From Escherichia coli (GTDB lineage: Bacteria; Pseudomonadota; Gammaproteobacteria; Enterobacterales; Enterobacteriaceae): 64,000 bases of DNA. Where the stretch lies: assembly GCF_022846255.1 (NCBI RefSeq), contig NZ_AP025682.1, one strand, 5' to 3'. The number at the start of each line of letters is the position of its first letter. Position 1 is the stretch's first letter. The notes below the pieces were generated by a model that made no database searches, was not told where the DNA came from, and was given only the letters and a program-made list of their open reading frames with translations. Below are positions 14,642 through 16,706 of this stretch, in pieces. The translations under genes and the position numbers were made by a program.

Positions 14642-15100
14642 TTATAGAGACAAGTCCTGCAGTCGCTCCGATAAGTCTCCAGTAGCCAACTGCTCTGCGT
14701 CGATATCTTCCTTGACCTGTTGATGCCAGGTTGTTTCATCCCACAGCTCAAACTTGTTGAACTGTCCAACCAGCATCACTTCTTTTGTCAGCCCGGCATG
14801 TTGCCGCAGTACTGGCGCGATTAACAATCGACCTGCGCCATCCATCTGACATTCGCTGGCATGACCTAACAGTAGGCGCTGCACACGGCGCTCAACCGGG
14901 TTCATGCTCGACAGACGCGATAATTTTTGCTCGATAATTTCCCATTCAGGCAGGGGGTAAAGCAGCAGGCACGGGTGATGAATGTCAATGGTGCAAACCA
15001 TTTGACCGGCAGCGTTCTCAAGCAGCTGTTCCCGATAACGGGTAGGCACTGATAAGCGCCCTTTGCTGTCGAGATTGACTAACGTTGCTCCCCGGAACAT
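14642..15100 (-). CDS. mraZ: Transcriptional regulator MraZ
   Basis: Track ORF 14642..15136 trimmed to [19 protein letters not shown]... (152 aa). Confidence 0.92.
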
Positions 15101-15119
15101 GCCAGCCTCACCCCTTATT

Positions 15120-15144
15120 CCCACTTTGCCCCACAATTTCCCAC
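15120..15144 (-). promoter_or_regulatory. Three direct GTGGG repeats at 10-bp periodicity just upstream of mraZ (candidate MraZ operator / Pmra region)
   Basis: Plus strand shows CCCAC three times at about 15120, 15130 and 15140; this matches the known MraZ binding architecture. Confidence 0.6.
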
Positions 15145-15701
15145 TGAAAGGAGTTTACGGAGCGGAGGAAAAGCTTGTCAAGCCAGTCACAAGGCATACC
15201 GAGGTAAAAAACCCGATGTTTACGGCTAATATCAGCGTTGTTTATTTTACGTCCAACGTGCGAAGCAAATTAACGTTATGAATAGCTGTAAGAAAAAATC
15301 CCTCATCGTCATCACCGTTTTAAAATGACTCACTATTTTCCACAGCAAATATAAAGTGTCAGTTTGCGACGCGAGCGGCATTTTAGGACATATCTTCCCC
15401 GGTTAACAGTCCCTGTTGCGTCTGTGTGGCGCTTGATGCCAGCGGGTTTGCGCAAAAGCAAAGAAAAGTGTTTGTTAAATCGGCAATTCATCTCTGCATG
15501 TAACAAAATAATGCAAAAACGCGCTATCGATATCACTTAATTATTGTGAATTTCAGCTGGTGAGGTAATTAACGGGCAGGTTTAAAAGCATTTATCAATA
15601 ATAGCCAGGAATAGTCTTATTTACTTTAAGGATATTGATGTCCATTCCCGTACTCAACGCGCCAGAGAGAAATTCACCTGGCGCGTATTTTTGTTCGCGG
15701 C

Positions 15702-16706
15702 TTAGCTACGGCTGAGCACGCCGCGGCGATAGAGATTACGTTTAATGCGCGTTAAACCAGGTTTTGGCTTACGCGGTTCGTCCAGGCTTGCCAGGACAAT
15801 CTCCAGCACACGCTCTGCGACATCGCGGTGACGTTGAGCCACTGCCAGCACCGGGCACTGTAAGAAGTCGAGCAGTTCGTTATCGCCAAAGGTGGCAATT
15901 GCCAGGTCAGAAGGCAGTTTGCCGTCACGACGTAGCGTGACATCCATCACCCCTTGCAACAACGCAAACGACGTTGTGAACAGTGCCTGCGGCATCGGAT
16001 GCGTTTCCAGCCATTTTTCGAATAACTGGGCAGCCGCCTCCCGCTCATAGCTGTTGGCATAAAGGAAATGCACTTCGCGAGGATCATCTTTCCAGGCAGT
16101 ACGGAAACCTTGTTCACGCAGGAAGCTGACAGAAAGCTCCGGCAGCGCGCCAAGATAAAGTACCGTCTCGGCGGGAAACTTACGTAACTCTTCCGCCAGC
16201 ATTTCGGCATCATCCTGATCGGCACCAACCACGCTGGTGAAGTGTTCACGATCGAGGGCGCGGTCCAGCGCGACAATCGGGAACGGGTCGTTAGCCCAGC
16301 GTTGATAAAAAGGATGCTCAGGTGGCAACGACGTCGAAACAATAATGGCATCAACCTGACGCTGTAAAAGATGCTCGATACAACGCATTTCGTTGTCGGG
16401 CTGATCTTCCGAGCAGGCAATCAGCAGTTGATAACCCCTTTGCCGCGCCTGGCGTTCAAGATAGTTAGCGATGCGGGTATAGCTGGTGTTCTCCAGATCG
16501 GGGATCACAAGACCAATAGAACGTGTGCGTCCAGCACGAAGCCCAGCTGCCACGGCGTTCGGGTGGTAATTGTGCTCACGCACCACAGCCATGACTTTTT
16601 CAACGGTTTTGTCGCTCACACGGTATTGCTTCGCTTTGCCGTTAATAACATAGCTTGCAGTGGTCCGCGACACTCCCGCCAGCCGAGCGATTTCATCCAG
16701 TTTCAC
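15702..16706 (-). CDS. cra: Catabolite repressor/activator Cra (FruR), LacI family
   Basis: Track ORF, 334 aa, [31 protein letters not shown]... Confidence 0.96.

Follow-up and report, generated by a model that had tools for sequence, protein, structure and literature searches.

Direct repeats in the mraZ leader of Escherichia coli correspond to the known MraZ operator of the Pmra promoter

Eraso et al. 2014 (J Bacteriol 196:2053) reportedly found that purified MraZ bound DNA with three direct repeats lying between Pmra and mraZ. [quoted passage not shown] Related arrangements are found in distant bacteria. The B. subtilis repeats are three GTGG[A/T]G motifs with 4-nt spacers, and those of Mollicutes follow the scheme (AAAGTG[T/G]-N3) repeated three to four times around a GTG(G) core. 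In both groups the repeats adjoin the mraZ operon promoter and are needed for MraZ-dependent regulation, and in B. subtilis repression requires the repeats plus both DXXXR motifs of the protein. A cryo-EM study of M. genitalium (2026) resolved an opened MraZ oligomer with one subunit per box, in which a cradle-like motif enters the major groove and base contacts are made by Lys13, Arg15 and Arg86 (PMC12957436); that Mycoplasma structure concerns a four-box site and a protein given there as 28% identical to a homologue. In literature comparison, MraZ shares its DNA-binding fold family with the AbrB, SpoVT and MazE looped-hinge-helix ('swapped-hairpin') regulators. These also read short G/T-rich elements through arginines in the major groove but are without the MraZ ring-forming interface, and in the literature examined we met no fixed array of three boxes with a 10-bp period described for them.

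Here we consider the mraZ leader within a window, meaning the whole 64-kb stretch of E. coli DNA that was analysed. The locus is unambiguously that of E. coli mraZ: 701 bases around the repeats are 100% identical to several complete genomes and are found in 5423 of 5426 complete E. coli genomes. Along the minus strand the order is cra (16706-15702), a 601-bp spacer, mraZ (15100-14642), rsmH, ftsL and ftsI, the same as in E. coli K-12, where the promoter hexamers of Pmra, the repeats and the whole 50-nt leader are likewise the same as in the window. RefSeq labels the mraZ product 'division/cell wall cluster transcriptional repressor MraZ'. The features of the leader and promoter are as follows.

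14642..15100, minus strand: mraZ coding sequence, 152 aa, matching Pfam PF02381 (MraZ) in two stretches (E 4e-47)
15105..15114, minus strand: degenerate fourth 10-bp unit GGGGTGAGGC, keeping the phase of the repeats (in-phase match with 2 mismatches at 15110-15134)
15120..15144, minus strand: array of three direct repeats read as the MraZ operator, +2 to +26 of the Pmra transcript
15120..15124, minus strand: repeat 3, GTGGG, +22 to +26, AAA ahead
15130..15134, minus strand: repeat 2, GTGGG, +12 to +16, TTT ahead
15140..15144, minus strand: repeat 1, GTGGG, +2 to +6
15145, minus strand: Pmra transcription start, A (primers of Sun et al. 2021, PMC7876045, supplementary file 6)
15152..15157, minus strand: Pmra −10, TAAACT (consensus scan; mutagenesis primers, PMC7876045)
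15159..15202, minus strand: stretch of a published PdhR gel-shift probe (PMC3265435 Table 4), overlapping the −35 and the promoter spacer, not the repeats
15176..15181, minus strand: Pmra −35, TTGACA (consensus scan)

Positions 15144 to 15120 of the minus strand, which is the coding strand of mraZ, read GTGGGAAATTGTGGGGCAAAGTGGG, and the sequence ahead of the gene runs ...CTTGACAAGCTTTTCCTCCGCTCCGTAAACTCCTTTCA GTGGG AAATT GTGGG GCAAA GTGGG AATAA GGGGTGAGGCTGGC ATG. A first, sequence-only reading had described three GTGGG pentamers one helical turn apart, about 20-45 nt upstream of mraZ. Both statements are borne out by measurement: the repeats start exactly 10 bp from one another (at 15144, 15134 and 15124, minus strand) and extend from −44 to −20 relative to the A of the ATG (15100). 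The same reading gave the cra-mraZ spacer as roughly 600 bp and unusually long. Measured from the cra stop at 15702 to the mraZ start at 15100 it is 601 bp, a length exceeded in the annotated neighbourhood of about 50 kb by only one other intergenic gap and by none between co-directional genes; the remark is correct, yet it is a separate matter from the MraZ operator.

The full pattern GTGGG-N5-GTGGG-N5-GTGGG occurs once in the 64-kb window, both strands considered, and in none of 100 dinucleotide-preserving shuffles. The looser pair GTGG-N6-GTGG has five matches for 2.1 expected, two of the five being the operator itself. It is therefore the triple array and its conservation, and not any single pair, that carry the significance of the finding. 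The degenerate fourth unit contains the Shine-Dalgarno GAGG (15109-15106, minus strand). A full-text literature search for the operator sequence and for TGGGN returned nothing relevant.

The consensus scan depicts Pmra as a strong σ70-type promoter, the combination of TTGACA, an 18-bp spacer and TAAACT matching 10 of 12 consensus positions. Since the primers of Sun et al. 2021 set TAAACT as the −10 and C-A-G within cctttCAGtggg as the start-site bases (PMC7876045), the start corresponds to the A at 15145, six bases past the −10, which gives a leader of 45 nt. The Y−1R+1R+2 sequence at the mraZ start was termed sub-optimal by the same authors (PMC7876045). The sequence-only reading had proposed a comparison with the published Pmra start, and this comparison places the first repeat just one base past the A at 15145. 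A secondary source gives the start as '38 bp upstream of mraZ', against the 45 nt derived from the primers; it would fall at 15138, between repeats 1 and 2, and would lack a good −10. Whether the start is at 15145 or at 15138, the array overlaps the start region.

Several further observations concern the promoter itself. Its 18-bp spacer AGCTTTTCCTCCGCTCCG (15158-15175, minus strand) hardly varies between genera, an unusual property for a promoter spacer. Position 15164 lies within it and is C in the window and A in K-12 MG1655, C being the commonest base in the other genera examined and A being found in none of them. It is the sole difference from MG1655 in the 100 nt upstream of mraZ and leaves the repeats untouched. 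The spacer stretch 15158-15175 is covered by the published PdhR probe, on which PdhR binding in vitro was very weak, with a ChIP enrichment of 1.7-fold (PMC3265435). Overlapping the −35, CTTGTGACTGGCTTGACAAG (15183-15198, minus strand) carries the arms CTTGTGA / TGACAAG of a nearly perfect inverted repeat. The TGTGA-N6-TGACA within it is similar to a CRP site, the left arm being conserved only in Escherichia and close relatives, and mraZ has been listed among new CRP targets by genomic SELEX (PMC3105977).

The protein that would act on the array is intact. Both DXXXR motifs are present in the product of the adjacent gene (DSKGR, D11-R15; DGAGR, D87-R91), and the only residue that differs from K-12 MraZ, H41 here for Y41 (codon 14978-14980), lies outside them.

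Conservation was assessed in one scan of species-representative genomes, which yielded 80 Enterobacteriaceae loci with MraZ 88-96% identical, or 81 leaders when the window is included. GTGG-N6-GTGG-N6-GTGG is found in all 81 leaders, at a fixed distance from the −10 and with the same 10-bp period. The −10 hexamer itself is kept in 74-80 of the 81 leaders, depending on the position. The fifth base of the boxes behaves differently in the three repeats. It is G in 80/81 leaders for repeat 1 and in 80/81 for repeat 2, whereas in repeat 3 it is G in 1/81 (the E. coli window), T in 54, C in 15 and A in 11. The perfect third GTGGG, whose last G is at 15120 on the minus strand, is therefore restricted to E. 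coli among the 81 species compared. Between the boxes, TTT ahead of repeat 2 (+9 to +11) is kept in 79-81 of the 81 leaders and AAA ahead of repeat 3 in 81/81, and the remaining inter-box bases are variable. Because GTGG and the preceding TTT or AAA are invariant or nearly so while the other inter-box bases vary, the aligned leaders define the conserved unit as (A/T)3-GTGG, not GTGGG. The AAA and TTT before boxes 2 and 3 echo the AAA of the Mollicutes unit AAAGTG(T/G).

Leader length falls into two main classes, 43-45 nt and 52-54 nt. The longer class, found in about 20 species, has an additional unit, about 10 bp long, that follows repeat 3, precedes the ribosome-binding site and keeps the helical phase. 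An example is Buttiauxella, GTGGTGGAAA GGGGAATTTA AGGGTGAGGC. From these alignments, the array seems to grow by whole helical turns.

Within the species, positions 15101-15150 are identical in 4835 of 5423 E. coli genomes. The variants inspected in this stretch were a replacement of C by T at −1 and, in a single genome, a 5-bp deletion. That genome is E. coli WS3294A (NZ_CP035819.1), the only genome covering this stretch in the lowest identity band of the search. Its deletion, CAGTG aligned to 15141-15146, takes out the Pmra start A together with the GTG of repeat 1, and may represent either natural variation of the operator or a mistake in the assembly.

We read the array as the MraZ operator through which MraZ autorepresses Pmra, at a probability of roughly 93%, with binding and repression taken from the literature. 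Anatomy, position relative to the promoter, an intact cognate protein and conservation of the array were all observed directly at this locus. Three direct repeats that share a GTG(G/T) core are set apart by 6-nt spacers; they stand at the dcw promoter, downstream of the −10; mraZ with both DXXXR motifs is adjacent; and the array is conserved while inter-box bases vary. The sequence-only reading had matched the pentamers to the reported MraZ auto-repression operator, and the window array agrees with that operator in core, spacing and position. The MraZ operator is thus an already known element, and the finding is real, rightly located and rightly interpreted.

A different explanation of the same bases, which we consider improbable, is that a G-quadruplex in the non-template DNA or in the 5′ leader RNA controls mraZ, instead of or besides MraZ binding. 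The E. coli leader does contain a canonical motif, G3-N7-G4-N6-G3-N5-G4 at 15142-15111 (minus strand), that is, four runs of at least three G with loops of 1-7 nt. Moreover, in S. aureus a G-quadruplex downstream of the mraZ promoter has been reported to lower expression, and similar motifs have been claimed in Gram-positive and Gram-negative mraZ promoters (PMC11796246). Yet the E. coli motif depends on the G that ends repeat 3 and is accordingly present in one of the 81 leaders, whereas the conserved part of each box, GTGG, holds a run of two G. Quadruplex motifs are also no more frequent in the window than chance would provide (three against 2.3 expected from shuffles), the loops here are long (5-7 nt), and ViennaRNA with quadruplex energies, applied to the RNA leader only, leaves the motif out of the minimum-energy fold. 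An array of GTGG(G) boxes yields G-runs automatically, and the quadruplex motif is taken as a by-product of the G-rich boxes.

Beyond the Enterobacteriaceae, the homologous-protein search gave only close relatives, and six distant MraZ loci (63-36% identity) were drawn from cluster representatives. Four of them present three or four GTG/GTGG boxes in 10-bp phase right after a promoter-like −10. A fifth has two boxes at the end of a truncated contig, and in the sixth two in-phase boxes are followed by a third at a distance of 20 bp. TAAACT recurs as the −10-like element in two of the six. The 10-bp period of the window is also that of the B. subtilis and Mollicutes repeats, and the GTG(G) core is shared with both. 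Two differences from M. genitalium deserve mention: the box number is three in E. coli and four in M. genitalium, and the E. coli array lies wholly downstream of the −10, from +2, whereas the M. genitalium start site is inside box 1.

The position of the array also raises the question of RNA polymerase itself, and the repeats could in principle be mainly a signal of the initial transcribed region for promoter-proximal pausing, not a protein operator. The mraZ promoter indeed has a σ70-dependent, Gre-sensitive pause with a 14-15-nt RNA and a bubble of about 26 nt (PMC7876045), and the reported pause position maps inside repeat 2. The authors, however, tie this pause class to the −10, a 6-nt spacer and the start-site bases, not to downstream repeats (PMC7876045), and pausing would leave unexplained both the three 10-bp-phased boxes and the arrays in distant bacteria with different promoters. 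We therefore regard pausing as very unlikely to be the main function of the repeats, noting that a pause signal and an operator can coexist. Least plausible of all is that the array arose by chance or from the base composition of a leader rich in purines and of its ribosome-binding site. The stretch just ahead of the ATG is indeed rich in G, and the Shine-Dalgarno is overlapped by the fourth unit of the same phase. Even so, the triple pattern is absent from all 100 shuffles, similar arrays are seen in most distant MraZ loci examined, and the conservation of the array, with cores invariant in 81/81 species and variable bases between them, excludes chance.

Returning to the MraZ operator, the following mechanism may be proposed. 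An MraZ oligomer made from the gene just downstream would approach the DNA with one 'cradle-like' SpoVT/AbrB DNA-binding surface per subunit. Each such surface, composed of two DXXXR-containing half-domains, would read one GTG(G) box in the major groove. The one-subunit-per-box geometry is taken from the literature on the Mycoplasma genitalium complex and is applied here by analogy. Because the boxes are 10 bp apart and on one face of the helix, neighbouring subunits of a single oligomer could bind all three cooperatively. With the array at +2 to +26, bound MraZ would sit on the DNA which RNA polymerase has to grip and melt at Pmra, so that transcription of mraZ and of the division genes downstream would drop, constituting a negative feedback. 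As to the mode of repression in E. coli, we infer that MraZ sterically occludes the promoter or blocks promoter escape. A synthetic-promoter survey found that an MraZ site at +1 gave significant activation, not repression (PMC11806353), and overproduced MraZ is reported as an activator in M. gallisepticum; the sign of the MraZ effect may therefore depend on context.

The spacer between cra and mraZ has a structure of its own. Its length is 553-733 bp, mostly about 560-660, in 78 Enterobacteriaceae species, and it contains blocks whose conservation extends across species, listed here from the cra side towards Pmra.

15620-15608, minus strand: island E ATAAGACTATTCC, short conserved block
15514-15499, minus strand: island C GCATTATTTTGTTACA, short conserved block
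15409-15402, minus strand: island D CTGTTAAC, short conserved block
15385-15347, minus strand: island A TAAAATGCCGCTCGCGTCGCAAACTGACACTTTATATTT, near-invariant in the 78 species
15297-15261, minus strand: island B TTTTTCTTACAGCTATTCATAACGTTAATTTGCTTCG, conserved across species
15226-15204, minus strand: T-rich block, conserved, just upstream of the −35

Ten consecutive bases of island A, GTCGCAAACT, are 100% conserved in the 78 species. Spacing is tight, with 84-87 bp from island A to island B and, in all species, 101-104 bp from island B to the Pmra −35. In E. coli each island occurs once and carries no annotation, for island A across 5423 genomes. In K-12, islands A and B correspond to coordinates 89,349-89,387 and 89,437-89,473. 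Relative to K-12, the sequence upstream of the promoter has 12 differences; all of them fall within 15413-15668, which leaves islands A and B as well as the operator untouched.

Island A includes CTGACA in 60 of 78 species. At 16-18 bp past it, a hexamer with A2 and T6 is found in 61 of 78 species, compared with 24% at random positions; this weak −10-like hexamer is GAAAAT in the window and GATGAT or GAAGAT elsewhere. Given this pairing of CTGACA with a hexamer at promoter-like distance, a weak second σ70 promoter is probable, with a predicted start near 15328, about 180 bp upstream of Pmra. A 22-bp near-invariant block ahead of it looks like a regulator site. 'Two distinct promoters' have been noted across the mraZ promoter region in a preprint.

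Island B shows codon-like substitutions along an open frame, ...FFLQ(L/I)F(I/M)TLIC..., and a small hydrophobic protein (MTMRDFFLQLFITLICFARWT) was considered as a candidate. It was rejected because the frame, though kept open in other genera, has variable ends and lacks a conserved start codon. No annotation exists at island B in K-12 or RefSeq, YabR being located elsewhere, between leuO and ilvI. Since no start codon is conserved, island B is probably a DNA site, not a small protein.

Searches for RNA structure between island A and Pmra were negative. RNAalifold gave no consensus structure on either strand, and the sequences folded singly were no more stable than their shuffles (z-scores +0.9 and −0.4). 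In Rfam, the stretch 14900-15900 matched no RNA family at E <= 1. When islands A-C were compared by eye with consensus sites for PurR, Cra, LexA, NrdR, OmpR/RstA/CpxR, σ54 and σ28, no convincing full-site match was seen.

At the opposite end of the spacer, past the cra stop, 15658-15685 forms a hairpin (CGCGCCAG...CTGGCGCG) whose T-run is found on the plus strand, the cra strand having an A-run instead; it would terminate better in the antisense direction. A terminator of an antisense transcript was rejected here, an ordinary cra terminator being found at this place in other genera, and by this comparison the hairpin is read as the cra terminator.

It is tempting to speculate, albeit as a tentative and rather doubtful proposal, that the MraZ operator is the promoter-proximal end of a larger, undescribed and length-locked control region with at least five conserved islands. 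If true, control over transcription of the division cluster would lie with an upstream nucleoprotein assembly, or with a second transcript running through the MraZ operator, and not solely with MraZ. These upstream islands are a lead for dcw regulation and the sole part of the present analysis that might repay further work.

The value of the operator finding is otherwise confirmatory, in that a reading of raw sequence pinpointed a published regulatory site to the base. The refinements that accompany it are the unit (A/T)3-GTGG, a perfect third GTGGG seen only in E. coli among the species compared, and an array starting at +2 and overlapping the reported pause. Since mraZ and, downstream of it, many essential genes for division and the cell wall are expressed from Pmra, the operator is a control point for the timing and the amount of the cell's investment in division.
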